A DNA stretch of 63,639 bases from an uncultured Planctomycetales bacterium. Lineage in GTDB: Bacteria; Planctomycetota; UBA1135; CAZMYG01. How positions within the stretch are numbered: the first letter of the stretch is position 1; each line of letters starts with the position of its first letter. A program made the position numbers and the translations under genes. Below are positions 5,947 through 62,191 of this stretch, in pieces. The notes beneath the pieces were generated by a model. The model worked only from the letters and a program-made list of their open reading frames with translations. It had not been told where the DNA came from and did no database searches. The stretch is from assembly GCA_964570465.1 (NCBI GenBank), contig CAZMYG010000002.1, positions 1 to 63,639 on the forward strand. The letters are read 5' to 3'.

Positions 5947-6039
5947 GTGCCGGCATCTTCTATCGAGTCTTCGCGCGAATTAACTGAAGTGGACTCAAGT
6001 ACCAACTAGCACTCAGCCGAAAAAGGCGGGGCACAGGAA

Positions 6040-7070: not shown

Positions 7071-7074
<4 letters not shown>
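6040..7074 (+). CDS. pseB: UDP-GlcNAc 4,6-dehydratase, PseB/CapD/FlaA1 family
   Basis: VLGGTGSIGS Rossmann motif, then FSRDEAKQ, HCAAMKHV, TDKAVNPSNVMGASK (YxxxK-equivalent region), RFGNV..SSGSV and MTRFF. The architecture is co-linear with FlaA1/PseB as I recall it. Inverting versus retaining specificity cannot be decided from motifs. Confidence 0.7.
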
Positions 7075-9061
<1,987 letters not shown>

Positions 9062-9063
9062 AC

Positions 9064-17515: not shown

Positions 17516-17523
17516 AGATTGTT

Positions 17524-18684
17524 ATGTTTCAGTTAGAAGGAGTGGAGGCCGTTGCTCAAGAGCTTGATTCCCATTCCGGTTGGGATCCGCGATTTGGCGT
17601 TTGGAAACCGAAGCTTCGAAGAGTTTCTAATGAACTGGTTCAGGAAAGTCCCCCATCTTTTGCTGAACTCGATCAATTTTTGGGCCGCTCCATTCCGCCA
17701 ATCAAAGTTCTTTGGAGAGGTTCTTCTTCGATTGGCGATAGTTTGGGAAATTGCTCTACCGAATCGTTAAAAGCGCTGACTCAGCTCGGAGTCGATTTTC
17801 AATTTTCCTCTTTGAATGAAGTGAATGGGCAGACTTCAGGAAAGTTTGATTTAGAAATTCAAATCCCTGGAGCGAAAGAAGCGCAGGAGGATCGTTGCGT
17901 TCGATACCTTTTTCACGAATTTGGGCATTTCTACAATTTCCCAATTCGTGAAAAAGATCTGCTTTGGGCGCCTTCAATGTGGATTCACAAAAAATTGAAA
18001 GCGGGCTTTCCGAAAAATCGTATTTTGCTTGCTCCTCATGGAGTCGATTTACAGTGCTTTCATCCCAAAGTAGATCTTCATCCTGAACTTACAGACGGGA
18101 AATTTCGGTTTTTATATTTAGGAACGACGACTTCGCGCAAAGGCATCGACCTTCTTTTGCAAGCATTTGAAGCAGAGAGTCGTTTTATGCCTCAAGCAGA
18201 GCTCTTGCTCAAAGTTTCCCCAACAAGCTCCGGCTTCATCTGGAAAAAAATCTATGAGCAAGGCAATCAAGTTCGAGTCTGGGATCAAACGATGACGCCT
18301 CCAGAGCTTGCGCGAGTGATTCGTTCTTGCCAAGTTTTGGTGTCTCCATCGCGCGCGGAAGCTTTTTGTTTGCCAGTTCTAGAAGCCATGGCTTGCGGAA
18401 TTCCTGCGATTGTTACTCGTGGCAGTGCCATGGAAGAGTTTTCAAATTCCGAGTCTCGTTTTTCAATTGAAGCTGAGGAAGTGCGAATTCCTATTCCTGG
18501 AAAAGAGATATCTTTTCTGGAGCCAAATCTGGACGCACTGCGTACTTTGTTGCGCAAGAGCTATGAAAGTCGCGAGCTTTTGCAATCGATGGGTAAGAGT
18601 GCTAAAAAATCAGCGGGGCGTTTTTCTTGGGGGGACGTTTCGCGCATGCTACTAGTAAAAGCCTGGGATATTTTTCAGGGATAA
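17524..18684 (+). CDS. GT4-family glycosyltransferase
   Basis: FRFLYLGTTTSRKGIDLLLQAF and SPSRAEAFCLPVLEAMACGIPAIVT. Confidence 0.8.
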   Translation: MFQLEGVEAVAQELDSHSGWDPRFGVWKPKLRRVSNELVQESPPSFAELDQFLGRSIPPIKVLWRGSSSIGDSLGNCSTESLKALTQLGVDFQFSSLNEVNGQTSGKFDLEIQIPGAKEAQEDRCVRYLFHEFGHFYNFPIREKDLLWAPSMWIHKKLKAGFPKNRILLAPHGVDLQCFHPKVDLHPELTDGKFRFLYLGTTTSRKGIDLLLQAFEAESRFMPQAELLLKVSPTSSGFIWKKIYEQGNQVRVWDQTMTPPELARVIRSCQVLVSPSRAEAFCLPVLEAMACGIPAIVTRGSAMEEFSNSESRFSIEAEEVRIPIPGKEISFLEPNLDALRTLLRKSYESRELLQSMGKSAKKSAGRFSWGDVSRMLLVKAWDIFQG

Positions 18685-18685
18685 T

Positions 18686-19702
18686 ATGAAAATAGGGGAA
18701 GCTACGAATCCTGTTGAAGTGATGACGATCGCAGGTCGGCGTGCTTTTGAAGAAGAGGATATTCCAAAAATTAGTGGATTCACTCTTCTAGGACTTGGAA
18801 TTGGTGATGTTCTTTGCATGCTACCAATGGTCGAACAGGCGGTTTCTCTTTTGGGAAAGCGGCTAGTCGTTTTTACACAAAGGCCAGAAGTTTTCCGCTA
18901 TCACCCTAGTGTTGATGCCGTATTTTCAACTACTCAGGCAATTCAGGATCATCTCAATTCTGGAAATTTGCTATTCCTTTGTCCGGTTTGTGGACTTGGG
19001 GATCGTTTCGAAGCCCATCTCATCGAACAGTCTGCTCGAGGCATCGTCGATCTTCCTACTGTTGCAAAACGAATTCGATTTTATTCGGATCTGTCTGCTT
19101 TGAATGTAGTGCAAGACAAACTGGCCGCTTTAAAAACAGATAGGCCGAGAGTTATTGTGCATCCCTCACAGAGTGTTCCTGTTCGCAGCTGGCCACGAGA
19201 AAGTTGGGTGGAATTGGTGCGCGAACTTCTTCGTAGCTACGAGGTGATTGCCATTGGGCAAGAAACGGCCGGACTTTCCTCTCAAGGAGAAAACGTTTCA
19301 AAATTTCCCTTATCCTTAGGGATAGAGGATCCACATTTCCATGATTGGACGGGGAAACTTTCTTTGCATGAGTCCTATGAATTGATTCGCTTGAGCGATT
19401 TAGTCATTACTGTGGACAGTGGAACGTTGCATCTTGCCAACTGTACTCAAACTCCCATCGTTTCTATTTTTACCCATGTTGCGCCAGAGTTTCGAATGCG
19501 ATTTGGCCCAGATGGAAAGATTGGCTATCAAACAATTCCTGTATTTTCTTCCTGCGAATATCAGTTCTGTGCGTCGCGATTTGGTTGTTATGACGACCGC
19601 TGTCGACTGGAAGGCAAAGAGGGTTACATGAAGTGTTTACCCAGCACTCGAGCCGTTCTCGACGCAGCGCAGCAATTTTTAAAGGCAAACAGTAACGGTT
19701 AA
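18686..19702 (+). CDS. GT9-family (heptosyltransferase-like) glycosyltransferase
   Basis: GDVLCMLPMV near the N-terminus and LSLHESYELIRLSDLVITVDSGTLHLANCTQTPIVSIF are typical of GT9. Confidence 0.7.
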   Translation: MKIGEATNPVEVMTIAGRRAFEEEDIPKISGFTLLGLGIGDVLCMLPMVEQAVSLLGKRLVVFTQRPEVFRYHPSVDAVFSTTQAIQDHLNSGNLLFLCPVCGLGDRFEAHLIEQSARGIVDLPTVAKRIRFYSDLSALNVVQDKLAALKTDRPRVIVHPSQSVPVRSWPRESWVELVRELLRSYEVIAIGQETAGLSSQGENVSKFPLSLGIEDPHFHDWTGKLSLHESYELIRLSDLVITVDSGTLHLANCTQTPIVSIFTHVAPEFRMRFGPDGKIGYQTIPVFSSCEYQFCASRFGCYDDRCRLEGKEGYMKCLPSTRAVLDAAQQFLKANSNG

Positions 19703-21930: not shown

Positions 21931-22647
21931 CTAGGGGGCTCGTTTTCGTTTGAGGCTCAAACTCATGAGTTCGGTTGCAAACTCTGGTTTGAGAGCCGCG
22001 AGAATGGCACCAGCCTTTTCTGTGTTTTCCTTGGAAATTTCTTCGAGAATCAAGTTCGCCGTTTCTGCGCCTTGGGCCTGCATGAGCTCAGCAACTTTTG
22101 AGGCGGGTTCTATCGTGTTATACCACGCTGCGATCGTGACGACGCTTTCTTGCTGCCTCGAGGCTAAATCGGCTTGTCCTTGCAAGAGAGCTTTGGATTC
22201 TTCATCCAGTTTTTTGCGCGTTTCTTCAATCTTGGCTGCAAGAGTTGTCAAATCCTCCCAGCGTCGTTCTAAGTCTTTCTCGCGTTTTACTAGATCTTCT
22301 TCCTTTTCACGCAGCTCTGTAAGTTTCACTTCTCTTTTACGACCTTCGTCGATTTCGACAGAGAGTTCGTTGAGGTTCTCCGCTGTGAATGGGGAAGGAA
22401 GAGAGAAATGTGCTAATGGAGGTAGCTCTTCTTCTGGTTCCTTTTTCTTTTCGTCTTTTGCGTCTTCTTTGACGGGTACAGTGATCACGATAGGCACTGG
22501 TTCACCAAAGAATCTCCCGAGAATTGGCATCCTCGTCAACGTTTCGCTGTTGAGCTTCCCTTTTGCTGCCAAAAACAAAAAGACGGACAAGAGAAGAAGG
22601 CCGAGACCTCCAGCCACCAATCCAACAATTAAATAAATTTTCTTCAT
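21931..22647 (-). CDS. Membrane-anchored coiled-coil protein with an MgtE_N-like C-terminus (FlbB/YlxF-like)
   Basis: N-terminal TM, an E/K-rich coiled coil, and a C-terminus VAELMQAQGAETANLILEEISKENTEKAGAILAALKPEFATELM that resembles MgtE_N-type helices found in ylxF/flbB-type genes located after fliJ. Confidence 0.5.
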   Translation of the reverse strand: MKKIYLIVGLVAGGLGLLLLSVFLFLAAKGKLNSETLTRMPILGRFFGEPVPIVITVPVKEDAKDEKKKEPEEELPPLAHFSLPSPFTAENLNELSVEIDEGRKREVKLTELREKEEDLVKREKDLERRWEDLTTLAAKIEETRKKLDEESKALLQGQADLASRQQESVVTIAAWYNTIEPASKVAELMQAQGAETANLILEEISKENTEKAGAILAALKPEFATELMSLSLKRKRAP

Positions 22648-22650
22648 GTG

Positions 22651-22953
22651 TTATCTCCAAGAAGCAGGTTGAATGTTCTTTTCCTGCATTCCCAACAAAC
22701 GATTGTTTTCCCGAAGTTTCACTTCCAATGTGGCCATTTCGACTCGCAGTCTGCAAATTTGCAGTGTGAGATCTTCGATTTGTTCACTGGTAGCAGCCGT
22801 CCCGCTGCCAGAGAAAATTTTTCCAATCAAGGGTAGTCGCGTGAGAGTGGCTTCGTTCAAATGTCCTTGCATGGCAAGAAACGAGAACGTGGAAAGAAAA
22901 AACAAAGCAATGCCACTCGCTAGCACTGCACAGAACACTCCGATGCGTTTCAT
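22651..22953 (-). CDS. Small membrane-anchored coiled-coil protein, an N-terminal paralog of the next gene
   Basis: MKRIGVFCAVLASGIALFFLSTFSFLAMQGHLNEATLTRLPLIGKIF aligns with MKKIYLIVGLVAGGLGLLLLSVFLFLAAKGKLNSETLTRMPILGRFF of the 21931..22647 product. It overlaps the fliJ stop by 4 nt. Confidence 0.5.
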   Translation of the reverse strand: MKRIGVFCAVLASGIALFFLSTFSFLAMQGHLNEATLTRLPLIGKIFSGSGTAATSEQIEDLTLQICRLRVEMATLEVKLRENNRLLGMQEKNIQPASWR

Positions 22954-29043: not shown

Positions 29044-30429
29044 TCACACTCCTTTTGGCAGAGAGTTCTGCCGGTACAGTTTCAATTTGTTCGAAAGTGT
29101 TCTGGCGGTAACACCGAGTATCTTTGCCGCTTCCGTTTTGTTATCTCCAACGGAAGCGAGTGTGTTGAAAATCACGTCGCGTTCGATTTCTGCCAGAGAA
29201 CGACCCGTAATCTGTTCAAAGAGTTTTTCTTCGCCTGCAGCTTTCCATTCTCCAGATAGAGGACGAGCGATCAGTTCTCCCTCGAGCTCCTCTAGGCCGA
29301 TCACAGTACCGTGATCGCGTACAGCGAGTCTTTGCATCAAGTTCTCCAACTCGCGTACATTTCCTGGCCATGCATAGGCTTGCAGTCTTTGCATCGCTTC
29401 CGGCGCAACGGAATTGACTTTCGATCCGTATTGCGTGGCGAAACGCTGGAGGAAACGAGCGACGAACAAGGGGATGTCCTCCGCGCGTTCTCGCAACGGT
29501 GGGATGTGAATCGGAACAACATGCAAGCGGAAGAAGAGATCTTCCCGGAATCGTCCCTTTTGCACTTCGGTTCGCAGATTACGGTTCGTTGTCGCGATGA
29601 CGCGCACGTCCACTTGAATGGTTTTCGTGCCTCCGACTCTTTCGAATTCTTCTTCTTCGAGTACACGCAGCAATTTGGCTTGCAAAGGCATGGAGATTTC
29701 ACCGATTTCGTCGAGGAGTAAAGTTCCCCCGTCGGCGAGTTCGAATCTGCCTTCTTTCTTCTGTACAGCCCCGGTGAAAGAGCCTTTTTCGTGTCCGAAC
29801 ATTTCCGATTCGAGCAAGTTCTCGGAAAGTGCGGCGCAATTTACTCGGATGAAAGGTTGTTTTGCGCGTGGGCTGCGTTCGTGAATTCTTTGCGCGATGC
29901 GTTCTTTTCCGCAGCCGCTTTCTCCAGTTAAAAGAACCGTGGCTTTCGTGCGCGCTACTTTTTCGACTTCAGACAAAATGGCTCGCGCGGGTCCGCTCTC
30001 GCCGATGAATTCGCAATCCCCTTTATTTTGCGCTCGTAGATAATCGTTTTCTTGACGCAGACGGCGATCTTTTGCGGCGCGTGAGAGCACGAGTTCGAGT
30101 GCATCAGGAGCGATCGGTTTCAACAAGAAGTCCGAGGCGCCCTCTTTCATGGCAGCGACGGCGGATTCAATCGTGCCGTGCGCCGTCAAGAGAATGAACG
30201 GAATCTGCGTATCGAGTCGGCGCAAATCTTTAAGCAAAGCGAGTCCGTCTCTCTTGGGCATTTTGAGATCGGAAAGGACGAGATCTGGTGAAGAATCTTC
30301 AAATCGCCGTAGCCCTTCTTCTCCGTCACGAGCTTCGAAAACTTCATAACGCATCGAACGCAAGGCTTCGGCGAGGAAGTCTCTACTCAACGGGTCATCA
30401 TCAACGAGGAGAATTTTCTCAATTCCCAT
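29044..30429 (-). CDS. Sigma-54-dependent response regulator (NtrC family; FlgR/FlrC/FleR-like)
   Basis: REC domain (LLVDDD, DLVLSDLKMP, FLLKP). AAA+ domain with GESGCGKE, GSFTGA (GAFTGA variant) and ESEMFGHEKG. C-terminal Fis-type HTH AAKILGVTARTLSNKLK. Confidence 0.9.
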   Translation of the reverse strand: MGIEKILLVDDDPLSRDFLAEALRSMRYEVFEARDGEEGLRRFEDSSPDLVLSDLKMPKRDGLALLKDLRRLDTQIPFILLTAHGTIESAVAAMKEGASDFLLKPIAPDALELVLSRAAKDRRLRQENDYLRAQNKGDCEFIGESGPARAILSEVEKVARTKATVLLTGESGCGKERIAQRIHERSPRAKQPFIRVNCAALSENLLESEMFGHEKGSFTGAVQKKEGRFELADGGTLLLDEIGEISMPLQAKLLRVLEEEEFERVGGTKTIQVDVRVIATTNRNLRTEVQKGRFREDLFFRLHVVPIHIPPLRERAEDIPLFVARFLQRFATQYGSKVNSVAPEAMQRLQAYAWPGNVRELENLMQRLAVRDHGTVIGLEELEGELIARPLSGEWKAAGEEKLFEQITGRSLAEIERDVIFNTLASVGDNKTEAAKILGVTARTLSNKLKLYRQNSLPKGV

Positions 30430-31291
30430 GTTCTGCCTCGCTTTCTGATGTGGCGGTTGGCAACTCGATATCGAAACGTGTGCCGGAAGAACTATCCACT
30501 AATTGAATCGACCCTCCATGCAACTCGACAAGATTTCTCACAATGGCGAGCCCAAGACCTGTGCCTTTGGTTTTGGTCGTGAAGAAAGGATCGAAAATTT
30601 TTCCACGGTATTCTGCTGCGATTCCAGGCCCACTATCGCAAACGGAAATCACCACCTTTTCTCCGTGTAATTTTGCGGAAATCGAAATGCTTCCTCCGTG
30701 CGTCATCGCGTCCGCTGCGTTTGCAATCAGATTGCGAAGCACTTGACCGAGTTTGACGGAATCTCCAGAAATTCGAATGCTTGCTGGAACAGAGCTGTAA
30801 TCGATTCGCAGAGAGTTTTTCTGTTCGGGATTGAGATGTTGCTGAACGGATTCGGCTGCATGCTCAATACAAGCTTTGAGTGCGATGGGGCGCGCTACAA
30901 AATTTCCAGGAGAAGCAAAGGCGAGCAGGTCTGCCAGAATGGAATCCACTTCTGCTACGCCACGGACAATTTTCAAAGAATAGTTAACAAATTTTGCATC
31001 GCCGTTTTCGAGCCCTTTCGCGAGCAAATTGGCGAATCCTTGAATCCCGTTGAGAGGATTGCGAATTTCGTGGGCAATGACGGCCGACATTTGTCCCAAA
31101 GCCGCCAGCTTGTCGAGTCGGCGGATACGCTCATTGGCTTGGGCGAGCTCAAGATCGATTCGCTCTGCGCGCTCTCGCAGTTTTTCGTAGGAGCCGCGCA
31201 GTTCTTCTGTTGCCTTGACAAAAGTACCAAACGCCGAAGTCAGCGCTTCGATATCTTCAACAGAAGCAGTTGCTTGAGCTTTTTGGCTCAT
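30419..31291 (-). CDS. Soluble histidine kinase (HisKA + HATPase_c; FlgS/FlrB-like)
   Basis: H-box [16 protein letters not shown]-box [13 protein letters not shown]-boxes DSGPGI and GTGLGLAI. There is no TM segment and only a short coiled-coil N-terminus. Confidence 0.85.
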
Positions 31292-31968
31292 TTCCCAATT
31301 TCTCCAGCCTGAAGTTTTTGAACGTAAAACTCGTAATCCTTAACGGTTCCGAATTTCATTCGCTGTTCGAGAAGCTCACGAACTTTTCCAGCGTGAATTC
31401 CTGCTGAGCTCTGGGGAGAATCCGATGCGAGTTTCCGGTAAGAGCTCAAGGCGCTTTCCCATTTACCTTGCATTTCGAGGCAGTAAGCCGAGTAGAACTT
31501 GCTCCAAGAATCTTCTTGCGAGTCGTAGAGAGCACCCGCTTCTTCCCATTTCCCCAGCTTCATCAGAACCGGTCCCAGTTTTTTGATATTGGGTTTTACG
31601 TGGGGGTTTTTTGCCAAAGGATCTTTTTCCACGGGCTCTTCTTGTTCGACGACCACAACAATGGGCTCGGGATCGAGCTCTACTTGCAGCTCTTCACACT
31701 CTTCTTGAAGAGAGAGAATTTCTTGGCGCAAATCTTGAAGTGATACGGTGACATCAAAGGATTGCTTAGGAACCAGAGTAAGCGTGGGAATTCGCTCTCC
31801 GCTCTTTGCTTTTGTTTGGGCATTCAAGAGTTCTCGGATACGGAGGTCTTGTTGAAGCAAAGATTTTTCTAAATTGATGAGTTCTTCTAAATCCACCAAG
31901 TCTTGATTTTTTTCTTCATCAAGGCCTTGGAATGCGCAAAAGATCATGGATAGGAAAAAAACGTTCAT
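31288..31968 (-). CDS. Secreted coiled-coil / TPR-like protein, function unknown
   Basis: Signal-like N-terminus MNVFFLSMIFCAFQG, an acidic coiled coil, and TPR-like C-terminal helices (GKWEEAGALYDS..YCLEMQGKWESALSSYRKL). ATGA overlaps on both sides. Confidence 0.55.
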   Translation of the reverse strand: MNVFFLSMIFCAFQGLDEEKNQDLVDLEELINLEKSLLQQDLRIRELLNAQTKAKSGERIPTLTLVPKQSFDVTVSLQDLRQEILSLQEECEELQVELDPEPIVVVVEQEEPVEKDPLAKNPHVKPNIKKLGPVLMKLGKWEEAGALYDSQEDSWSKFYSAYCLEMQGKWESALSSYRKLASDSPQSSAGIHAGKVRELLEQRMKFGTVKDYEFYVQKLQAGEIGK

Positions 31969-33530
31969 GACGATCTCCTAAGAATTCCTTGATAGGCTTC
32001 TGCGGCTTGTTCTGTTTTCCCTTGTTGCAGGTAGGCATCACCTAGTAATTGGAAGGCTTGGTCGACCCATTTGGGGTCATTTGCAGTTGGTAGCCATTCC
32101 AATAGCCATTTGATGCATTGATCTGAAGCTTTGTTTTCGAGCAAGTAACGTGCGGCTTCTAGTTTGGCTTCGCCTCCATAACGGCGACTCCCAAAATGTT
32201 CGCGCAACATGGCAATGGCTTCTTCTTTTTTTCCAAGCTGCTGTAAGCTTGCGGCCCTTGAAATAGCTTCGGCGCCTGGATCATCGAGTTCCAAGAATTC
32301 TTCTAGATGGGTAGACCTTCGAACTTGATCTGCAAGTTGATTCCAGGCTTTAGAGTCGATGGATTCTTCGCCCCGGGTTTTTTCCAAGAGAAAAATCGCC
32401 GCAAGATAGTCCCCGTTGTGATAAGCCGCTTCCGCGGCACGGAAATTTGCTCGAGGGGCCTCTTCTCGATTAGAAAACTCTCCAGCAAAGCGGAATAGAG
32501 TAGCCGCGGCTTTTTTGTATTCCTTGAGATCAAAAAGGCAATTGCCGTACACCCACAAAAATTCCTGTCGCGACGCAGCCTTTTTCTTGGCTTCTTCTTC
32601 GTAGGGCAGGACGAGCTCCAGCGCTTCTTTCGCCGAGCCTTGGCGGCGCATGCATTCTGCTAAGTAAAGTTTTGCCATCAGCAGGAAAGGTGAGTTGGGA
32701 TATTGCTCCACCATGAACCCAAAGTATTTTCCCGCTCGATCGACAGAGCCTAGTTGGAGCAAGCTGCGGCCAAAGAGATAGTAGCCTTCATCAAGCTGGT
32801 TAAAGCTGACGAAATCGTTGACTAGGTTAGAGAGATAACCGTAAGCAACTTCGTAATTTCCCGCTTTGATTTGATTGCGTCCTAGCCTGAGCAGGGCTTC
32901 TGGGACATCATCGGAGTTACGGAAATTTTTGATGATGGCTTGATATCTCTGATTTGCTTCTTCGATTCGTCCTTCTTGTTCATCGATAGAAGCGATGAGC
33001 AAAAACAGTTTGGTGGTATCCGGGAAATGGGGGAATTTTCGGCTTGCTTCGTAGCTTGCCTGGATTCCTGCAGTGAAAACCCACTTTTTCCCTTCTTCAG
33101 AGTCGGTCGTTGGGATTGCTGCAAGCGTGACAACGTTTCCGGTTCTCGTATAACGCAATTCTGCAGATCCAAAGGTTGGTTTGAGAATTTCATCAAGTTT
33201 TCGCCGCGTGAAAGAGAGATCAATAGTCGTATTTGCAAAGCCTGGTTCCAAACCTTCAAACTTCAATCCACTTTTCTTGGAAAACTCTTCTAAAAAATCT
33301 CCCAGACGGATGTAGCGGGCCTCGACGGAATATAGAGTTCCAGAGTTTGAGGATTCTACTTCAATTTGTATTGGAGTTGTTTCTTGTGAAGCCTGAGAGC
33401 TTTCATGTTTCTCTTCCTGTGCTGGTGCTGATTCGTGTGCTGGGGCTTGTTCGTGTTCTTGTTTGTGTCCATGGTCTTGAACTACAAGTACAGCAACGAA
33501 AACGGATGTAGTGAAAGAGAGTATGGTCAT
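31965..33530 (-). CDS. Envelope TPR protein with an N-terminal anchor, a His/Glu-rich linker and an STN/secretin-N0-like segment
   Basis: ATG 33530 (MTILSFTTSVFVAVLVV) forms an ATGA overlap with the upstream stop; the track start at 33641 overlaps the upstream gene. Linker: HGHKQEHEQAPAHESAPAQEEKHE. The segment LYSVEARYIRLGDFLEEFSKKSGLKF...LDEILKPTFGSAELRYTRTGNVVTLA resembles STN domains, though this is judged from memory of the pattern only. About 350 aa of TPR-like repeats follow. Confidence 0.6.
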   Translation of the reverse strand: MTILSFTTSVFVAVLVVQDHGHKQEHEQAPAHESAPAQEEKHESSQASQETTPIQIEVESSNSGTLYSVEARYIRLGDFLEEFSKKSGLKFEGLEPGFANTTIDLSFTRRKLDEILKPTFGSAELRYTRTGNVVTLAAIPTTDSEEGKKWVFTAGIQASYEASRKFPHFPDTTKLFLLIASIDEQEGRIEEANQRYQAIIKNFRNSDDVPEALLRLGRNQIKAGNYEVAYGYLSNLVNDFVSFNQLDEGYYLFGRSLLQLGSVDRAGKYFGFMVEQYPNSPFLLMAKLYLAECMRRQGSAKEALELVLPYEEEAKKKAASRQEFLWVYGNCLFDLKEYKKAAATLFRFAGEFSNREEAPRANFRAAEAAYHNGDYLAAIFLLEKTRGEESIDSKAWNQLADQVRRSTHLEEFLELDDPGAEAISRAASLQQLGKKEEAIAMLREHFGSRRYGGEAKLEAARYLLENKASDQCIKWLLEWLPTANDPKWVDQAFQLLGDAYLQQGKTEQAAEAYQGILRRSS

Positions 33531-34108
33531 AGCCCCTCCTCCGCTGGCTTCAGTGTTTCTCGCAGATAGCATTCGGCTATTCGAAACTGAGCTTGTGCAG
33601 CCAGTGATTGTTCCTCGGCAGGGAGAATGTCCGCACCGCAAAGGAAGGAGTAGTACAAGCTGCGCGCCTTTCGGAAATTACCTTTTTCGAATAGAGCGTT
33701 CGCTTCTTCAAAAGAGCGGTGCTGGCCTTTTTTCGCGTGCACGCTGGAATCAAAAGCGCGATTGGCGATTTCATAAATCTCTGCCGCTTTTTCATACTTA
33801 CCAAGTCTTCGATAGCTATCGGCCATCCCCAAGAGAATGTCGATGTGGCGCTCAGGATTTGGTACATCGCGAGGCAGAGGAGGCAAAACCGCATCAGGAT
33901 GAGTAACGGTCGCATTAAATTTTTCGACGATACGCGAAGGTTTCACACTCACAATTCCAAGAAGAATGGCGTTCATCAACATCGCACCAAACAAACCGAT
34001 GGAAAGAATGGTGGACTTTTCCATCTGTCCGAGTTTCGCCAATAGTCCAGGAGCTTTTGGCTTTTTCGCTTTTTCTTCTTCCGGTGGTTTTTTCTCTTCT
34101 TCAGCCAT
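33527..34108 (-). CDS. Single-pass membrane protein with a TPR-like periplasmic domain
   Basis: K/E-rich N-tail, TM segment STILSIGLFGAMLMNAILLGIVSV, and TPR-like helices (MADSYRRLGKYEKAAEIYEIA..., ALFEKGNFRKARSLYYSF). ATG 34108 (MAEEEKK) is preferred; the track uses the alternative start at 34120. Confidence 0.55.
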   Translation of the reverse strand: MAEEEKKPPEEEKAKKPKAPGLLAKLGQMEKSTILSIGLFGAMLMNAILLGIVSVKPSRIVEKFNATVTHPDAVLPPLPRDVPNPERHIDILLGMADSYRRLGKYEKAAEIYEIANRAFDSSVHAKKGQHRSFEEANALFEKGNFRKARSLYYSFLCGADILPAEEQSLAAQAQFRIAECYLRETLKPAEEGL

Positions 34109-34110
34109 GT

Positions 34111-35193
34111 TTATGCCCACAACACTTGTTTCAGTAAATTTTGTTCGCTATTCGCTCGGCTTGAGGAAAGAGAGATGCGAAAGGAGACAGTACTGCCCTT
34201 ACCTTTTTCCGAATGAATACGTAAGTCATCGACGGGACGGTGCATTTTGCGAAGTCCGCAATTTGGAACTGGCTCTGCGCTGAGAATCCGCGAGAGAGTG
34301 CTCGACGCAGAAAAGCCTTTTCCGCGATCTTGAATTCGAACCCAGAGCGAATTGTCTGCGCGGCTCATTTCGATCCAGGCTTTCCCCTGTTGATTCGGAT
34401 AGGCATGTTGCATGGCGTTGAGCAAGGCTTCTTTGCTTGCAAGAAATAAAGCCGCGTAGGCTCGCTTGGGAAGATTTTCTCGCGCCGCAATTTTTCGCAG
34501 CTGCGCTAAGAAATCGTTGATCCGATCGAGATTGAGTTCTATCTGAGTGGAGAACGGAATTTCACTTGGTAGTTCATTTCCAGCTTCGCAATTGTTTGAA
34601 GCGGCTTTTTCGATGGCATTGAGTAGCAACTCCAATTTGAAAGGCTTGCAGAGATAGTCCAAAGCACCCAGGCGCAGCGCGCGCAGAGTTGATTCCGCTG
34701 ACGCGTAGCCGGTCATCACGACGAGTTTCAGATCGGGACGAATTTCTTTGAGTTGTTCAAACAGAGCAATTCCGTCGTCCACAGCAAATCCGTCCAAGCG
34801 CAGATCGGTGACAAGAATTTCAATCGACTTGTTTCTAATTAGCTCAAGAGCTTCTTCTCGATTCGAAGCGCTGAAGGCTTGGTGGCCTTTGAGTTCCAAG
34901 GAGCGAACGATGGCGGAACGAATTCCCTTCTCATCTTCTGTCACGAGAACTCTTCGTGAAATTCCAGTGGCAGGGAAATTTGCGTTCTGTTTCGCAGTAG
35001 TGAAAGGGTTTTCGGACTCACTGAGAGTTGAGAGTGCACGATTCGCGCTCATCGCAATTCTCTCGGTCTCCGCAAGGGCACTCGTGAGAATTTCTGCTCG
35101 TGGGTCGAGAGCATCTGTCTGCTCTTGTACGAGCTCGATTTGCGCTCGAAGTGAAGCGATTTGATTGCGAAGGGTGTCTAGCTCTAGGTTCAT
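34111..35193 (-). CDS. Coiled-coil + receiver (REC) + RsbW/SpoIIAB-like HATPase domain protein, with no HisKA domain
   Basis: REC domain: RVLVTEDE, ILVTDLRL, VVMTGYAS, YLCKPF. C-terminal domain: ALLNAMQHAY (N-box), IQDRGKGF (G1), GKGSTVSFRI. No H-box/dimerisation domain was recognisable. Confidence 0.65.
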   Translation of the reverse strand: MNLELDTLRNQIASLRAQIELVQEQTDALDPRAEILTSALAETERIAMSANRALSTLSESENPFTTAKQNANFPATGISRRVLVTEDEKGIRSAIVRSLELKGHQAFSASNREEALELIRNKSIEILVTDLRLDGFAVDDGIALFEQLKEIRPDLKLVVMTGYASAESTLRALRLGALDYLCKPFKLELLLNAIEKAASNNCEAGNELPSEIPFSTQIELNLDRINDFLAQLRKIAARENLPKRAYAALFLASKEALLNAMQHAYPNQQGKAWIEMSRADNSLWVRIQDRGKGFSASSTLSRILSAEPVPNCGLRKMHRPVDDLRIHSEKGKGSTVSFRISLSSSRANSEQNLLKQVLWA

Positions 35194-36605
35194 GCTTCCA
35201 CCCCGTAAAGTTTCATTTTGTTATAGAGAGTTGTGCGATTAATCCCGAGCAGCGTTGCAGAGCGTGATATATTGCCGCGTGTTTCTCCTAGAACTTGTTG
35301 AATCAAGGCTTTTTCTACTCCGCGCAAAGAGCGCTCAGTTGCTGGCACTCGCAATTCCGAATTGGAATCTTGGAAACTCGTGTTCGAGTGCAGCGACAAG
35401 TCACCTTCTTCGATCCAACTTCCTCTTGCGACGATGGCAGCTCTTTCGATGGCATTTCGAAGTTCACGAACATTTCCAGGCCAGCTATGTCGTGAAAGCG
35501 CTTCCATGGCCTGTGAAGAAAATCCTCGCAGTTCTTTGTTGAGATCCTTGTTGTAGTGTTCGAGGAAATAATGCGAGAGCAGAGGCAGGTCTTCGCGGCG
35601 ATCCCTCAAAGGTGGAAGCTCGATCGACATGACATGCAATCTGAAGAATAAGTCTTGGCGAAATCGGCCTTGTTGAACTTCGGTTTGCAAGTCTCGGTTG
35701 GTTGATGCAATGACTCGGACATTGACCGGTAAATCTCGTTCTCCACCGACTCGTCGGACATTGCGCTCTTGTAAGACTCGCAATAGTTTTGCTTGTAGGC
35801 CGCTCGCCAACTCGCTGATTTCGTCGAGAAAAATCGTTCCTCCGTCTGCTGCGACGAACAATCCTTGTTTGCCGTTGGGGGAGGCACCTGTAAAGGCACC
35901 TTTTTCATAGCCAAAGAGTTCCGCTTCTAGCAAGGACTCGGTGAGAGCGGCACAGTTGATGGCAATAAAAGGTTTCATCCTTCTTTCCGAGTGATCATGG
36001 ATGGCCCGCGCGACGAGTTCCTTGCCAGTTCCCGATTCGCCCTGGAGCAATACCGTCGTATTCGGCGTTACGGCGACGGAAGTAATTTGTCGTAAAACGT
36101 TTCGGATCGCCGGACTGCGCCCAACGATCGGAGAGAATTTCAATTGTTGGATTTCTTCCCTCAAACGCCCCATTTCCTGCTGCATCTGTCGCAAAGAGAG
36201 GGCGTTTTGAAGTCGGGGGAGGAGAGAATCTCGACGTAAAGGCTTTTCGATAAAGTCGTAAGCACCATCTCGGATGGCTTCAACGGCAATCGAAACACTG
36301 CCATAGCCGGTCATCAACAAGACGGGTAGAGAGGAATCGGCCTGAACTAGGCTCCTTAATAAGGAAAGGCCCTCCGCCCCTGGCATACGTACATCAATCA
36401 GAGCCAAATCCGGCTTTTCTTGTTTCGCTATATATAAGGTAGAGTCCGCATCCCTTGCCCAGAGCACTTCGTAGCCTTCAGCACTCAGCATTTTTTTCAA
36501 GGCATCTGCAAAGGCGAGATCATCATCAGCCAAAAGGACAACGGGGGTGTGATGGGCGTAGGCCTTGCTTGAGGACTCCTTCGGCTCCAATAACGTTCCT
36601 TCCAT
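35190..36605 (-). CDS. Sigma-54-dependent response regulator (NtrC family), first gene of the long minus-strand array
   Basis: REC domain with intact acidic pocket (LLADDD, LALIDVRMPG, LMTGYG, FIEKP). GESGTGKE, GAFTGA, ELFGYEKG. HTH SATLLGINRTTLYNKMK. Confidence 0.9.
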   Translation of the reverse strand: MEGTLLEPKESSSKAYAHHTPVVLLADDDLAFADALKKMLSAEGYEVLWARDADSTLYIAKQEKPDLALIDVRMPGAEGLSLLRSLVQADSSLPVLLMTGYGSVSIAVEAIRDGAYDFIEKPLRRDSLLPRLQNALSLRQMQQEMGRLREEIQQLKFSPIVGRSPAIRNVLRQITSVAVTPNTTVLLQGESGTGKELVARAIHDHSERRMKPFIAINCAALTESLLEAELFGYEKGAFTGASPNGKQGLFVAADGGTIFLDEISELASGLQAKLLRVLQERNVRRVGGERDLPVNVRVIASTNRDLQTEVQQGRFRQDLFFRLHVMSIELPPLRDRREDLPLLSHYFLEHYNKDLNKELRGFSSQAMEALSRHSWPGNVRELRNAIERAAIVARGSWIEEGDLSLHSNTSFQDSNSELRVPATERSLRGVEKALIQQVLGETRGNISRSATLLGINRTTLYNKMKLYGVEA

Positions 36606-40170: not shown

Positions 40171-40535
40171 ATTCCACAACGGCATATTTGGAGGACCTGA
40201 TTGAGAAAACCACTCGCTGGCTTGCTGCTATTGACGAAGGCGATTTCAAAGCGTTGGAAGTGATGGGGTCGATCTGTGAACAGTCTCTCGCTCGTTTTCA
40301 GCAGGAAGGGACTTCACAATTTTCCGATTCGCTGCAAGACGCAGCAGAACGCGAGAGAGTCAAACTTCTCCTGGAAAAACTTCGGGGATTGACCGCTCTG
40401 TGCATTTCGAGGGCTCAAGAAAAACAACGGGAAGTAGCGGTATCGCTTGAGAAGACTCAGTCTGCAAGGCAAGTATTAGAAGCCTTGAGTGCGACCGAAG
40501 TTGAGCAGGTATCGAGCGTTGACCAAAGCGCGTGA
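40167..40535 (+). CDS. Helical 122-aa protein, possibly a FliT/FlgN-like export chaperone
   Basis: ATGA overlap with the fliS stop. The segment WLAAIDEGDFKALEVMGSICEQSL resembles the FliT A..G.W..L pattern. This is a weak similarity judged by eye. Confidence 0.4.
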   Translation: MNSTTAYLEDLIEKTTRWLAAIDEGDFKALEVMGSICEQSLARFQQEGTSQFSDSLQDAAERERVKLLLEKLRGLTALCISRAQEKQREVAVSLEKTQSARQVLEALSATEVEQVSSVDQSA

Positions 40536-42586
40536 CGCGGCACCGTCCACGCTGTATGGCAAGAAGGAAGGAGACGATGTATCTCGCATTAGTTCTGCCC
40601 CTTATTCAAACCATTGAACTCGCTTCCATAGAGGAACTTCAGTCCTCCCAAATTCAAGCGCAGGCCTCTTTCGGCAGTTCTGTTGCGGTTGTTCCAGATC
40701 TTGATGGCGATGGTGTCGCGGATTTCGCCGTCGGAGCCGACCGAGAAGATTTGGGAGAAGATCTTGAGGATGCGGGAGCGGTCTATGTGTTCTCTTCGGC
40801 AACGAGGAACGTTTTGCATCGCGTCGTCTCGCCAACCCCTACTGCCGCGGGATTTTTCGGCGTATCTGTCGCTGGGATTGAAGATCTCGATGGAGATGGC
40901 GCTGGAGAAATATTGGTCGGCACTTATTCAGAATGGGGAGGCGGTGCCCCGGTGAGCTCTGGGCGCGCGCATCTATTTTCTGGCGCAAGCGGAAATTGGA
41001 TTCGTAGTTTTATCTCTCCAAACCAGCAAGGCTTTGCTTACTTCGGAAAGTCCGTTGCCGCGATTCCCGATGTCAACGGTGATGGCAAGATGGATCTCTT
41101 AATTGGGGCGCATGGAGAAAACTTAGGTCCAGGGCTTCAGGATGCTGGACGTGCGTATGTGTTTTCCGGTGCGACAGGAAATCTCATTCGGACTTTAGTT
41201 TCTCCATTCCCCGAGGCTTTCGGATTATTCGGTTATGCGGTGTGCGGAATCGAGGATCTCGATCAAGACGGTCGCGGCGATGCTTTGATTGGAGCGCGAT
41301 TGGAGAATCCGGGAACAACGCCAATTGACGCTGGACGAGCCTATGTGTTTTCCGCTTGGACGGGAACTGTAATCCGTTCTATAGGTTCTCCCAACGAAGA
41401 GGGAAATGGACAATTTGGATTTTCTACTGCTGTCGTTCCGGATACCGATGGAGATGGTTTAGATGAAATTTTAGTTGGGGCCTATTTAGAAGATTCGAAT
41501 CACATTCCTCAACCTCCTCCGAATCCTCCACCTGCGCCACCAGAAGATGTTGGTCGCGCCTATCTTTTTTCTGGCTCGACGGGAAAACTTTTACGGACAT
41601 TCGAATCTGAAAATGAGGAAAATTCTGGACAATTCGCTTATTCGGTCTGCGGTGTCCCCGATGTCGATGGAGATGGATTTGGAGACATTCTCATCGCGGC
41701 GCATCAAGAGAACCTCTCTGAGGAACTCGAATCTGCAGGTCGCGCCTATCTTTTTTCTGGTTCGACGGGTCTTCTCCTACATGTGCTCACTTCGCCACAT
41801 CGTGAATCCTTCGGGAGTTTTGGATTCGCGCTTGCCTCTGCGCCGGATTTAGATGGAGATGGAGCCGGAGAAATTTTGGTGAGCGCGAGTGGTGAGAAAA
41901 TTTCCCAGACAGAATTGGGAGCAGGACGTGCCTATTTCATCAGTTGTCTTGTCGATTCCGATAACGATGGAGTCGGAGATCCGTGTGATCAATGCCCTGG
42001 ATTTGATGACACTCTCGATGCAGATTTCGATGGAATACCAAACGATTGCGACCCGACACCATTTCCGGAAATCATTGCGAGCAATCCCCCAAATGGAATC
42101 ATCGATGCGCGTCAACCAAGCCCCATTACCGGTGGAGCAGCGATGGGCTTTCAACAGATTCAATTAACGTTTTCTGGAAATGGAGTGGCGACGCATTTGC
42201 TCGCGTCGGATCTTGCCGTTTCGGAAGAAGGAGGCGATGGAGTTGCGCCAAACATCAGCGCGATAGAAGCCCTGGACCCGAATGTGGCGTTGGTTAGTTT
42301 GAGCGCCCCTGTTCAAGCGGGCGCCTGGACGCGGATCCGCTACATTCTCAGTGGGAGCGAAATTCGTTTTGGTTATTTGCCTGCCGATGTCAATGGAGAT
42401 GGTTACAGCGCGCCTATGGATATTTTGTATTTGATCAATTACTTCAACGGAGTAGTTTCGCTCCCAATTTGGTCGGCGGATATCAATCGCAACGGACTTG
42501 CTCATCAGTCCGATATTTTACGAGTGGTCGATTTGCTCAATGGTGCGGATGCTTTTGATCCTTGGATTGGCAGAACACTGCCGTAG
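40532..42586 (+). CDS. Seven-repeat FG-GAP (integrin-alpha-like beta-propeller) protein with a TSP3-like Ca-binding linker and a C-terminal dockerin-like domain
   Basis: Seven copies of FG..VA...D(L/V)DGDG..(D/E)(I/L)L(V/I)GA....AGRAY(V/L)FS. Then DSDNDGVGDPCDQCPGFDDTLDADFDGIPNDCDP. Then ADVNGDGYSAPMDILYLINYFNG...ADINRNGLAHQSDILRVVDLLNG. The start is ambiguous: GTG 40532 (GTGA overlap), ATG 40556 (MARRKETMYLALVLPL, signal-like), or ATG 40577 (good SD GGAAGGAG). Confidence 0.8.
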   Translation: MTRHRPRCMARRKETMYLALVLPLIQTIELASIEELQSSQIQAQASFGSSVAVVPDLDGDGVADFAVGADREDLGEDLEDAGAVYVFSSATRNVLHRVVSPTPTAAGFFGVSVAGIEDLDGDGAGEILVGTYSEWGGGAPVSSGRAHLFSGASGNWIRSFISPNQQGFAYFGKSVAAIPDVNGDGKMDLLIGAHGENLGPGLQDAGRAYVFSGATGNLIRTLVSPFPEAFGLFGYAVCGIEDLDQDGRGDALIGARLENPGTTPIDAGRAYVFSAWTGTVIRSIGSPNEEGNGQFGFSTAVVPDTDGDGLDEILVGAYLEDSNHIPQPPPNPPPAPPEDVGRAYLFSGSTGKLLRTFESENEENSGQFAYSVCGVPDVDGDGFGDILIAAHQENLSEELESAGRAYLFSGSTGLLLHVLTSPHRESFGSFGFALASAPDLDGDGAGEILVSASGEKISQTELGAGRAYFISCLVDSDNDGVGDPCDQCPGFDDTLDADFDGIPNDCDPTPFPEIIASNPPNGIIDARQPSPITGGAAMGFQQIQLTFSGNGVATHLLASDLAVSEEGGDGVAPNISAIEALDPNVALVSLSAPVQAGAWTRIRYILSGSEIRFGYLPADVNGDGYSAPMDILYLINYFNGVVSLPIWSADINRNGLAHQSDILRVVDLLNGADAFDPWIGRTLP

Positions 42587-42638
42587 TGTTAGCATCCCGC
42601 GCATTCGGCGGTCTTGAATTCATTTTTAAGGAGGGACT

Positions 42639-43412
42639 ATGTCATTTCGATTACTGCTGCTGGTTTTCTTGCTGTCATTTTGTTCTGGCTGTGCTTTGGT
42701 TGGATTAGGAGGAAGCGATTACCTGATCCAAGCAGAAGTCGGTATGTTCCAAATTAGCCCGGATGGGAATTTGGCTCTCGAAGACGGGAGTGGTCTCACG
42801 ACGGACAACTCATTAGAGGATCTTGGCCTAGATGACTCGGAGTCCCGACCTTATGCAAAAGCTTCGCTGCGATTGGGCTCGAATGAAATTTCTCTCTCTG
42901 GTTTTCAGATGGATTCCAGTGGTTCCGGTACTGTGACAGCCGCATTCGGTAATATCACCGCAGGAACTCCGGTCCAGTCCTCTCTGGAAATGACCAATGC
43001 AAAATTACTTTATCGTTGGTATCTCGTCGATTTGCCGATGATCAGCGTGGGTCCCGGAATTGGATTCGACTATATCGATATCAACGCCACGGCCACGGCG
43101 AGTTCTCTTTCGCTGACGGAAGAATTTGATGGCAAAGCCCCAATTCCAATGCCTGGAATTTCGGCAGAGTTTCGTCTCGGAGGATTGAGAGCATTCGCGG
43201 ATCTCTACGGGATGAAGGCAGATGTTGCGGATATTGATGGAACATTCTTGGATCTTGAAGGAGGTGTTCGTTATTCACCGATTTCCAAAGTGGAAGCAAC
43301 GCTTGGCTATCGTCTGATCAGTATCGATATCTCTGGCAAGGATGGAACACGTGATTTTGATGTGGATTATTCTTTGCCCGGTTTGTTCTTTAGTGCAGGT
43401 ATTCGTTTCTAA
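42639..43412 (+). CDS. Outer-membrane beta-barrel protein
   Basis: Signal peptide MSFRLLLLVFLLSFCSGCALVG, alternating hydrophobic beta-strand pattern, and a C-terminal aromatic residue (FFSAGIRF). SD AAGGAGG. Confidence 0.6.
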   Translation: MSFRLLLLVFLLSFCSGCALVGLGGSDYLIQAEVGMFQISPDGNLALEDGSGLTTDNSLEDLGLDDSESRPYAKASLRLGSNEISLSGFQMDSSGSGTVTAAFGNITAGTPVQSSLEMTNAKLLYRWYLVDLPMISVGPGIGFDYIDINATATASSLSLTEEFDGKAPIPMPGISAEFRLGGLRAFADLYGMKADVADIDGTFLDLEGGVRYSPISKVEATLGYRLISIDISGKDGTRDFDVDYSLPGLFFSAGIRF

Positions 43413-60004: not shown

Positions 60005-60076
60005 AAGCAGATTTCAGTAATTCCTCAAGCTTCAACCCTTTAATCGTCGATAAAGCCGAGCGAGGAATGCAACCCG

Positions 60077-60280
60077 ATGAATTACACGAAGGAAGAGATC
60101 GGCGCTACCGCAGGCAGCGCGATCTACGCCCTAGTTCTGGTGATTGGATGGTTTCAGGACGTTTCCCCGATGGAATCCTGTTTTCGGGGAGTCGTTTGCG
60201 CGATACCAACCCTGTTGCTTGGGCAATTTCTTGGAGGCATGTGGGTGAAGGCGTCGCAGCAACAGCAGGGGGACGGATAG
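60077..60280 (+). CDS. Possible 67-aa two-TM membrane protein between flhG and fliA
   Basis: Two hydrophobic stretches, ATAGSAIYALVLVIGWF and VVCAIPTLLLGQFLGGMWV. The SD is weak. The alternative frame (60067..60288) is Arg-rich and looks non-coding. Confidence 0.35.
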   Translation: MNYTKEEIGATAGSAIYALVLVIGWFQDVSPMESCFRGVVCAIPTLLLGQFLGGMWVKASQQQQGDG

Positions 60281-60291
60281 AAGATTAAGCC

Positions 60292-61017: not shown

Positions 61018-61032
61018 AAAGGAGGCACAGAG

Positions 61033-62189: not shown

Positions 62190-62191
62190 AC

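Follow-up and report, generated by a model that had tools for sequence, protein, structure and literature searches.

A conserved three-gene module of envelope tetratricopeptide repeat proteins in the regulatory head of a Planctomycetota-like flagellar operon: a possible periplasmic motor scaffold

Three adjacent genes, here termed A, B, and C, lie on the minus strand of contig CAZMYG010000002.1 within the stretch of 63,639 nucleotides analyzed in this work (hereafter the window), where they are embedded in the regulatory head of a flagellar operon. Gene B encodes a putative exported protein in which a small domain with a predicted secretin-type fold precedes a long superhelix of tetratricopeptide repeats (TPRs), and A and C encode smaller TPR proteins of the cell envelope. 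We consider it possible, at a probability of roughly 45%, that the three proteins form an inner membrane-anchored periplasmic accessory complex of the flagellar basal body, functionally analogous to PflA/PflB and to the TPR partners of E-ring proteins. The proposal draws on the envelope TPR architecture of the proteins, the shape of B, and the co-occurrence of the genes with flagellar genes. It is favored because TPR partners of E-ring proteins are widespread in flagellar gene clusters (PMC11870540, PMC13023049), because a FlbB/FlgY-like candidate is encoded next to fliJ, and because A conserves its periplasmic TPR motif but not its cytoplasmic tail, a pattern that fits an anchor better than a signaling interface.

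A dense string of flagellar genes occupies the minus strand from position 36605 to position 19699. The opening gene of this unit, which is divergent from a flagellin gene at 36973, encodes a sigma-54 activator and is followed by a gene for a protein with REC and HATPase_c_2 domains, by A, B, and C, and by genes for a soluble histidine kinase and a second sigma-54 activator. Downstream of the regulators the order is flgB, flgC, fliE, fliF, fliG, fliH, fliI, fliJ, two small membrane-protein genes, fliL, fliM, and fliN, with the start of flgB 1 nucleotide past the stop codon of the second activator. The opposite strand carries fliC, flaG, fliD, and fliS, and elsewhere in the window are found fliOPQR-flhBA-flhF-flhG-fliA and large glycosyltransferase/TPR genes. 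Pfam analysis of the flanking genes bears out the placement of the trio between two sigma-54 regulators, as proposed in a first-pass annotation made from the letters alone. The ATGA start/stop overlaps given there for three junctions are all read directly in the sequence, at A/B (33527-33530), B/C (31965-31968), and C/kinase (31288-31291), and a further ATGA overlap joins the first activator gene to the REC-HATPase gene. B and C are preceded by strong Shine-Dalgarno sequences (GGAGGAGGGG and TAGGAG). Gene A has an alternative GTG start at 34120; the ATG at 34108 (MAEE...) is the likely start because the orthologues also begin with MAEE.

Comparison with the orthologues on the closely related contig L001 (87-91% amino acid identity) gave dN/dS ratios of 0.050 for A, 0.069 for B, and 0.063 for C at dS values of about 0.9-1.0. 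These ratios (0.05-0.07) fall in the same range as that of the neighboring kinase and show that A, B, and C are real genes under strong purifying selection rather than chance open reading frames (ORFs). The trio probably shares a single, translationally coupled transcript with the first basal-body genes, and the ATGA overlaps that join the genes suit the production of a stoichiometric complex. A scan for the sigma-54 promoter pattern returned 38 matches against 30 expected, and scans of the region from 28.5 to 37.5 kb for sigma-70 promoters and terminators returned nothing beyond chance. Within the unit itself, no consensus match to a promoter or terminator stood out from the chance level.

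Full-length B was modeled with AlphaFold2 (AF2) at a mean predicted local distance difference test score (pLDDT) of 83.8. Residues 1-51 are disordered in the model; they include an 18-residue hydrophobic, signal-peptide-like N-terminus (residues 1-18) and a low-complexity linker with a pLDDT of about 30. The 85-residue domain that follows comprises, in order, a β-hairpin, an α-helix, a β-strand, a short α-helix, a β-strand, an α-helix, and a β-hairpin, and when modeled alone (residues 54-138) it gave a pLDDT of 87.9 and a predicted template modeling score (pTM) of 0.78. The C-terminal superhelix has a pLDDT mostly above 90, and several Pfam TPR families match B above their cut-offs.

A Foldseek search of the PDB with the isolated domain returned matches of probability 0.9-1.0, with template modeling scores (TM-scores) of 0.5-0.64 and root mean square deviations (rmsd) of 2.0-2.8 Å over about 72 residues. 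Nearly all of the top 50 were secretin N0 domains, TonB-receptor signaling domains, or FecR-type C-terminal domains. The best match was the N0 domain of PilQ (4ar0, E = 2e-3, rmsd 2.4 Å); the secretin group as a whole comprised PilQ, InvG, MxiD, XcpQ, GspD, EscC, LspD, and BfpB. The signaling domains of the TonB-dependent transducers FpvA, PupA, PupB, and HasR were also recovered, as were the FecR-type C-terminal domains of PupR (TM-score 0.64, rmsd 2.0 Å) and BDI_1681. A profile of the domain searched against PDB sequences ranked PilQ N0 (E = 0.022) and PupA STN (E = 0.14) highest. In Pfam, FecR_C (PF16344) matched three of six family members with a best E-value of 7.5e-4, below the gathering score (the copy in the window scored 12.3 bits versus 24.4), and STN (PF07660) matched two of the six with a best value of 0.069, likewise below gathering. 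Residues 54-138 of B are thus predicted to have the secretin-N0/TonB-receptor STN/FecR-C fold. The AF2 and Foldseek results make the STN assignment correct at the level of fold, with sub-threshold agreement from hidden Markov models. The STN-like segment of about 70 residues recognized in the first-pass annotation is accordingly borne out as a somewhat larger domain. We also considered B as a FecR-type anti-sigma factor and rejected this assignment: the STN-like domain is N-terminal, following the signal peptide, and B has no match to FecR (PF04773) or to any anti-sigma family.

The His/Glu/Gln-rich linker of B, also described in that annotation, is present at residues 20-43. In alignment A1, however, it occurs only in the window and in the relative with 87% identity (P0002) and is deleted in P0009, P0010, P0059, and P0153. 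Since these four more distant orthologues do not have it, the linker is a low-complexity insertion of recent origin, and the family is not defined by it. Its absence from four of five orthologue clusters led us to reject it as a functional conserved feature.

Protein A is predicted to be a bitopic membrane protein. A Lys/Glu-rich tail (residues 1-32), cytoplasmic in the predicted topology, is followed by a transmembrane helix at residues 33-56 (nucleotides 33941-34012, Kyte-Doolittle score 2.2) and by a predicted periplasmic part of about 135 residues with about three TPR-like repeats, which match TPR_6 (30 bits) and TPR_14 (24.9 bits) in Pfam, both above cut-off. The transmembrane helix and the C-terminal TPR motif are kept in the orthologues from L001, L003/L009, L004, and L005, the last motif in the form ..ARxxYxxxL....A.FxIAxCY..E. 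The tail of the orthologues, in contrast, is of low complexity, runs from about 30 to about 110 residues, and varies in both length and sequence.

Protein C of the window has a short and weak N-terminal hydrophobic stretch (Kyte-Doolittle score 0.89); its orthologues from six loci have classic signal peptides. A conserved amphipathic helix at about residues 72-100 (SLQDLRQEILSLQEECEEL) is followed by an acidic Pro/Glu linker and by about two to three TPRs (residues 125-190), for which the TPR_6 match of 24.6 bits falls just under the Pfam cut-off; NCBIfam returned no match. A crude heptad test gave p values of about 0.03-0.15, with the segment at the same position in the window, L009, and L004. 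As this support is weak, we describe the segment as a conserved amphipathic helix rather than a coiled coil. The first-pass annotation had called all three gene products TPR/coiled-coil proteins with envelope anchors. The TPR part of this description stands for A, B, and C, the coiled coil is only weakly supported, and the anchors are clear for A (transmembrane helix) and B (hydrophobic N-terminus) and weak in the window copy of C, for which the signal peptides of the orthologues speak. When alignment profiles of A and C were run against PDB sequences, only generic or designed TPRs were recovered.

Relatives of B were sought with phmmer among 1.84 billion cluster representatives. Within the best 150 matches there were at least five full-length relatives (87, 44, 40, 26, and 25% identity) and a 611-residue variant, the remaining listed matches being generic TPR proteins. 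A profile search of a 5.8-billion protein set with alignment A1 added no further members. No relatives were found in GTDB species genomes scanned with FliF and a four-sequence B alignment, and an alignment of six B sequences offered no conserved stretch suitable for such a scan; in JGI metagenomes the B alignment found nothing, and the FliF alignment found only one contig of 1.2 kb. The sequence family of B appears to be rare and uncharacterized. Named proteins share at most 53-57% identity with the FlhA protein of the window, and almost all of them come from metagenome-assembled genomes of Planctomycetota; the source organism is therefore placed, on sequence grounds, in a poorly sampled Planctomycetota-like lineage of the Planctomycetes-Verrucomicrobia-Chlamydiae (PVC) superphylum.

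Seven other metagenomic contigs from five lineages carry the module (L001, L002, L003, L004, L005, L009, and L010; Table 1). The A-B-C order and the flagellar or regulatory neighbors are kept in six of them, with B down to about 25% identity, and in the seventh, L010, an A-B pair with a B-like protein of about 20% identity retains its regulatory neighbors. Where the contigs reach far enough, they contain flgB-fliF (L001 and L002) or the sigma-54 regulator that precedes flgB (L009). The A-B-C module thus travels with flagellar genes, A-B being its conserved core and C a frequent third member. A lack of such co-occurrence, one of the outcomes named beforehand as speaking against a flagellar role, was not observed. 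The term "lineage-specific," applied to the trio earlier, holds for the sequence family and fails for the kind of component, given the TPR proteins collected by Feng et al. (below). For the B-like protein of L010 (P0134, 2974-4809), hhalign gives a probability of 99.1% to an alignment with the B family that spans 458 columns and takes in the N0 domain. The protein has an extra N-terminal helical segment (NEILNAEKRNLEKLRTQLQILETQEE) ahead of the N0 domain, and no C gene follows it; the segment may represent a fusion or replacement of the helical part of C. The neighborhoods of two Planctomycetota-like FlhA loci, L007 and L008, end before the head of the fliF operon.

A, B, and C have no match to core-flagellar families in Pfam or NCBIfam, in line with the earlier impression that the trio resembles no core flagellar protein that can be named. 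Assignments of B to known envelope TPR families were tried and rejected. As YbgF (tol_pal_ybgF, TIGR02795), B scored 73.1 bits against a cut-off of 90.1, from three separate generic TPR stretches; as CpoB (PRK10803), 16.5 bits against 383; as BamD (TIGR03302), 43.9 bits against 81.4, with an N-terminus that has no lipobox cysteine; and as PorW (NF052312), 66.6 bits against 250. A scored 19.8 bits as YbgF/CpoB, below cut-off, and TolA_bind_tri had no Pfam or NCBIfam match in any of the three proteins. In a search of PDB sequences with the B profile, the best natural matches were TPRs of the CpoB/YbgF type (4e-9 and 3e-8), and Foldseek of full-length B returned TPR superhelices of a generic kind, OGT and designed CTPR proteins among them. 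Membership of YbgF or BamD, named beforehand as a result that would speak against a flagellar role, was not found: the matches are generic TPR matches below every curated cut-off. It is very improbable that the trio are generic envelope housekeeping proteins (Tol-Pal CpoB/YbgF, BamD, or similar) that came to lie in a flagellar operon by chance. The sub-threshold NCBIfam matches of B to tol_pal_ybgF, BamD, and PorW point that way. Nevertheless, none reaches its curated cut-off, no tol, pal, or bam genes are nearby in the window, and the order and flagellar/regulatory neighbors are kept in six contigs, with A-B kept in a seventh. Moreover, the B family is very rare among the listed matches, whereas housekeeping families are ubiquitous.

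The same resemblances could be read in terms of a pilotin- or chaperone-like periplasmic TPR complex that acts in the manner of PilF/PilW, BamD, or LapB and leaves the finished motor, having assisted the insertion or polymerization of a flagellar ring or the remodeling of peptidoglycan during rod penetration. The TPRs of B are most like those of CpoB/YbgF (4e-9 and 3e-8), BamD, and LapB; C is arranged like CpoB, with a signal peptide, a helical oligomerization segment, and TPRs in that order; the N0-like domain could imitate that of a secretin in binding partners that form rings; and the genes are probably co-expressed with those for the first basal-body parts. We regard such an assembly factor as distinctly unlikely in view of the YbgF, BamD, and PorW scores, which are all below curated cut-offs, the lack of a lipobox in B and C, and the lack of a TolA_bind_tri match in C.

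In injectisomes, secretin N0 domains dock on the FliF homologues PrgH/PrgK by strand augmentation. The injectisome complexes 6pem and 6rwk are among the Foldseek matches of the B domain. In the scaffold that we propose, the N0 domain of B would dock by β-strand augmentation on a ring located on the periplasmic side of the inner membrane and formed either by the FliF MS-ring or by the FlbB/FlgY-like protein encoded after fliJ, and the TPR superhelix would project outward as a spoke. A would anchor the assembly by its transmembrane helix and bind B through its small TPR domain, and C might oligomerize via its amphipathic helix and bridge the units to one another, to peptidoglycan, or to the stators. 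The assembly as a whole would position or stabilize stator units around the rotor.

The possible docking partner is the larger of two proteins (238 and 100 residues; 21931-22647 and 22651-22953 on the minus strand) encoded directly after fliJ. The two have near-identical transmembrane segments at the N-terminus (MKKIYLIVGLVAGG.../MKRIGVFCAVLASG..., then ...LTRxPxxGxxF), and the 100-residue protein looks like a truncated paralogue of the 238-residue protein. The latter is a candidate E-ring protein of the FlgY/FlbB type. FlgY homologues of the PVC superphylum are 204-280 residues long (Feng et al.), and the candidate fits both in size and in its adjacency to fliJ. No Pfam family, MgtE_N included, matches it.

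Published work supplies a frame for a complex of this kind. An E-ring of FlgY/FlbB/MotE-type proteins is widespread and usually encoded beside fliJ/fliK (PMC11870540, PMC13023049), and all characterized E-ring proteins have a TPR partner, namely PflA, MotC/MotK, FlcB, or CC_2058 (PMC13023049). Non-enzymatic TPR proteins occur in or near the flagellar clusters of about half of flagellated species (PMC11870540, PMC13023049). Feng et al. class as "potential PflA" a protein with at least three TPRs, no enzyme domain, and a gene within five genes of flagellar genes, a description that applies to B. The potential PflA homologues they list for Phycisphaera mikurensis include the TPR proteins WP_014435528.1, WP_014435530.1, and WP_014437356.1 of 493, 196, and 254 residues near flagellar genes; by size, the only property compared, these match B, A, and C.

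Several observations weigh against a motor scaffold. Neither sequence similarity to PflA/PflB nor any specific structural likeness could be detected: the B-family profile recovered neither PflA nor PflB at E ≤ 0.01 among all PDB sequences, and the Campylobacter jejuni scaffold chain 9hmf_K ranked only 15th in a Foldseek search with full-length B (TM-scores 0.26/0.19, rmsd 21.9 Å), no better than unrelated TPR proteins. The N-terminal domain of B is modeled as an N0/STN fold and not as AMIN, and A is four times smaller than PflB. The best NCBIfam match of the 238-residue protein, to NF047368 (collar_FlbB), has an E-value of 1.6e-6 and scores 28 bits against a cut-off of 110. The three genes lie among regulators and not among structural genes, and relatives with identities as low as about 20-25% keep this placement. 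On L010, a 5-kb contig that shows no flagellar gene, a complete partner-switch pair (REC-PP2C-RsbW and STAS) precedes A-B. Finally, N0/STN/FecR-C domains are also typical of trans-envelope signaling.

The last three points lend themselves to another explanation, in which A-B(-C) is an envelope sensor or assembly checkpoint. The complex would report the state of the periplasm or outer membrane (rod or ring completion, envelope stress) across the inner membrane via A, and the signal would pass to the REC/RsbW-like switch protein and the soluble kinase/sigma-54 pair to gate later classes of flagellar genes. We judge this rather unlikely. A REC + HATPase_c_2 gene adjoins A in the window, L001, L009, and L005, and in L010 it is represented by a REC-PP2C fusion with a STAS gene while the other neighbors change; a histidine kinase, with or without PAS, always follows C. 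The RsbW-type REC protein is the most constant neighbor of A-B across the loci, and it is because this adjacency persists even in the remodeled L010, which shows no flagellar genes, that the checkpoint idea is kept alive. The domain of B is closest in Pfam to FecR_C and superposes best on the cell-surface-signaling domain of PupR. Domains of the PupR/FecR-C family carry signals between outer-membrane receptors and inner-membrane regulators.

The constancy of the REC/RsbW-type neighbor points to a functional link between the module and regulation. The REC + HATPase_c_2 protein matches Response_reg (76 bits) and HATPase_c_2 (50.7 bits, cut-off 27.4), the latter of the RsbW/SpoIIAB type, and has a helical N-terminal extension of about 75 residues. 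Its orthologues are encoded directly upstream of A in L001, L009, and L005; the alignment identities of 87, 38, 29, and 23% drop in step with those of B. In L010 the homologue (129-2052) joins REC, PP2C, and HATPase_c_2 in one fusion and precedes a STAS gene, the layout of HsbR/HsbA or SypE/SypA. In Pseudomonas, the HsbR/HsbA module (REC-PP2C-RsbW and STAS) controls the flagellar sigma factor sigma-28 via FlgM (PMC5085249). The REC-RsbW-like protein of the window may act in flagellar regulation as an anti-sigma or partner-switch step under the control of phosphorylation; neither a STAS partner nor FlgM was seen in the window.

Set against a checkpoint are the facts that the kinases and the RsbW-like protein are soluble, which leaves A as the sole membrane-spanning component, and that the tail of A is short, of low complexity, and not conserved in length or sequence. 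A, B, and C contain no anti-sigma, HAMP, PAS, or other transmitter domain recognizable in Pfam or NCBIfam. Partner-switch regulators are often found inside the loci of envelope machines without contacting the structural proteins, as with btrUVW in the type III secretion locus of Bordetella, and long flagellar operons can retain an inherited gene order even among products that do not interact directly. A more specific form of the idea, that the N0/STN TPR protein senses completion of a flagellar substructure and via A controls the REC/RsbW protein together with the FlgS/FlgR-like sigma-54 pair, is unlikely. The switch between gene classes would then be tied to assembly in the periplasm, in a lineage whose flagellar region in the window showed no FlgM.

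The regulatory head also differs in detail between the loci. The soluble kinase of the window (290 residues) has no PAS domain, whereas its orthologues in L002 (2255-3448) and L009 (5293-6486) have 397 residues with PAS. An extra short kinase of 227-244 residues is encoded upstream of the REC-HATPase gene in L009 (735-1418) and L005 and is not found in the window or L001. These differences indicate that the regulatory head is under remodeling between close lineages.

Table 1. Features of the flagellar locus in the window and gene order on related contigs
Feature or contig	Position	Strand	Description and basis
First sigma-54 activator	35190..36605	-	REC + Sigma54_activat (AAA+, GAFTGA) + HTH_8
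REC + HATPase_c_2 gene	34111..35193	-	360 aa; Pfam
Gene A	33527..34108	-	193 aa; ORF and translation
Gene B	31965..33530	-	521 aa; ORF
B, His/Glu/Gln-rich low-complexity linker (residues 20-43)	33402..33473	-	HGHKQEHEQAPAHESAPAQEEKHE; translation
B, predicted N0/STN-fold domain (residues 54-138)	33117..33371	-	AF2 and Foldseek
B, predicted TPR superhelix (residues 145-513)	31992..33098	-	24 helices, about 12 repeat pairs; AF2
Gene C	31288..31968	-	226 aa; ORF
Soluble histidine kinase	30419..31291	-	290 aa; HisKA + HATPase_c, without transmembrane segment
Second sigma-54 activator	29044..30429	-	REC + Sigma54_activat (AAA+, GSFTGA) + HTH_8
FlbB/FlgY-like E-ring/collar-base candidate	21931..22647	-	238 aa; transmembrane helix, charged helical region, helical C-terminus
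L001			Gene order identical to window
L009/L003			Sigma-54 activator, short histidine kinase, REC-HATPase_c_2, A, B, C, PAS-histidine kinase, sigma-54 activator
L002			B, C, PAS-histidine kinase, sigma-54 activator, flgB, flgC, fliE, fliF
L005 (GC 69%)			Short histidine kinase, REC-HATPase_c_2, A, B, C, PAS-histidine kinase, contig end
L004			Histidine kinase-like, A, B, C, PAS-histidine kinase
L010 (GC 42%)			REC-PP2C-HATPase_c_2 fusion, STAS protein, A-like transmembrane-TPR protein, 611-aa B-like protein, about 270 nt non-coding, contig end

Other parts of the window deserve brief description. The region from 1183 to 19702, which abuts fliN, is probably a flagellin or surface glycosylation island. 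It encodes a LuxC-like acyl-CoA reductase, a LuxE-like acyl-protein synthetase, an AMP-binding enzyme, and a formyltransferase-C protein; next a PseB-like Polysacc_synt_2 dehydratase and two enzymes of the GDP-mannose-dehydratase family; and then three GT4 glycosyltransferases of about 910-1060 residues (one with C-terminal TPRs), a 386-residue GT4, and a GT9. After fliS, a 684-residue FG-GAP repeat protein and a 257-residue predicted outer-membrane β-barrel (TIGR04219 family, E = 4.7e-11, below cut-off) are encoded at 40532-43412. The segment 43421-51791 encodes a 391-residue TPR protein followed by TPR-glycosyltransferase fusions of 964 residues (with a GT9 segment) and 800 residues (with two GT2), and also a 662-residue HDOD-GGDEF protein whose gene is divergent from the fliO-fliP-fliR-flhB-flhA operon, suggesting a possible cyclic di-GMP link to motility. 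Past flhG and fliA, two unannotated ORFs of 228 and 223 residues at 60004-62863 have no family matches. Small unknown genes also follow fliA in L007 (14047-16770) and L008 (14113-17173), with products of 78-94, 199-262, and 209-215 residues. The small unnamed genes after fliA are possibly conserved flagellar genes of the group.

Periplasmic TPR proteins as motor accessories, partly derived from type IV pili, are an established class. We found no description, however, of an N0/STN-TPR protein encoded together with a small transmembrane-TPR protein and a helix-TPR protein within the regulatory head of a flgB-fliF operon. Full-text literature searches returned no paper on a TPR-containing motor protein of the flagellum that carries a secretin N0 domain and none assigning proteins to Planctomycetota motor structures. 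If the trio is a motor scaffold, it would represent an independent flagellar recruitment of a secretin-type domain (N0 and not AMIN or N1), here fused to a TPR superhelix; it would extend type IV pilus-derived motor scaffolds from Campylobacterota to the PVC superphylum; and it would name a specific candidate for the TPR protein that partners the proposed ancient E-ring in a Planctomycetota-like group. If instead the trio signals, it would link assembly in the periplasm to sigma-54 and partner-switch regulation in a new way. Experiments on the module are within reach, since it is small and well delimited and probably occurs in Phycisphaera mikurensis, which can be cultured.

Sigma-54 master activator, soluble or PAS histidine kinase, and sigma-54 response regulator before fliE-fliF make up the FleQ/FlrA-type regulatory head. 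The window resembles FleQ-FleS-FleR and FlrA-FlrB-FlrC of Pseudomonas and Vibrio and FlgS-FlgR of Campylobacter in having a sigma-54 activator, a histidine kinase, and a sigma-54 regulator before the early basal-body genes, and differs in the insertion of the REC-RsbW-like gene, A, B, and C between activator and kinase. The domain of B shares the predicted fold of the secretin N0/STN/FecR-C superfamily but is not carried on a secretin, a TonB-dependent barrel, or a FecR anti-sigma factor; instead it is N-terminal to a TPR superhelix and has an extra N-terminal β-hairpin. CpoB (YbgF) and the trio both have periplasmic repeats of the TPR_6 type, CpoB being the best natural PDB match of the TPR region of B, and C, like CpoB, has a helical segment between its signal peptide and its C-terminal TPRs. 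The trio differs from CpoB in its sub-cut-off scores, the lack of TolA_bind_tri, and the lack of a tol-pal context.

The E-ring TPR partners MotC/MotK of α-proteobacteria, FlcB/FlcA of Borrelia, and CC_2058 of Caulobacter are likewise periplasmic, TPR-rich, and encoded in or next to flagellar clusters. Their species carry a FlgY/FlbB/MotE protein, and the window has its FlbB-like candidate after fliJ. As described, these partners have neither an N0/STN domain nor a three-gene coupled unit in a regulatory head.

The Campylobacter scaffold offers the closest comparison in architecture. PflA consists of a PilQ-AMIN-like β-sandwich, a loop, and 17 TPRs and forms spokes, and PflB consists of a transmembrane helix and TPRs and forms the rim (PMC11870540); the same scaffold has also recruited PilQ-N1, PilP, PilMNO, and PilF-like parts (PMC11870540, PMC13023049). 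The differences are considerable. Where PflA has its AMIN β-sandwich and loop, B is predicted to have an N0/STN α/β fold directly before about 12 TPR pairs. PflB has about 800-820 residues with a long TPR array and an antiparallel β-pair, whereas A has 193 residues and about three repeats. PflA/PflB have no counterpart to C, the trio genes sit between regulators, and the trio has no detectable sequence homology to PflA/PflB, the structural likeness being that of TPRs in general. Nevertheless, PflA/PflB, like A and B, are encoded with flagellar genes. A resembles PflB in being, by prediction, an N-in bitopic membrane protein with periplasmic TPRs, and B resembles PflA in being an apparently exported protein in which an N-terminal β-containing domain is followed by a long TPR superhelix. 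Indeed, the N-terminal domain of PflA is PilQ-like (PMC11870540), and the best structural match to that of B is the N0 domain of PilQ.

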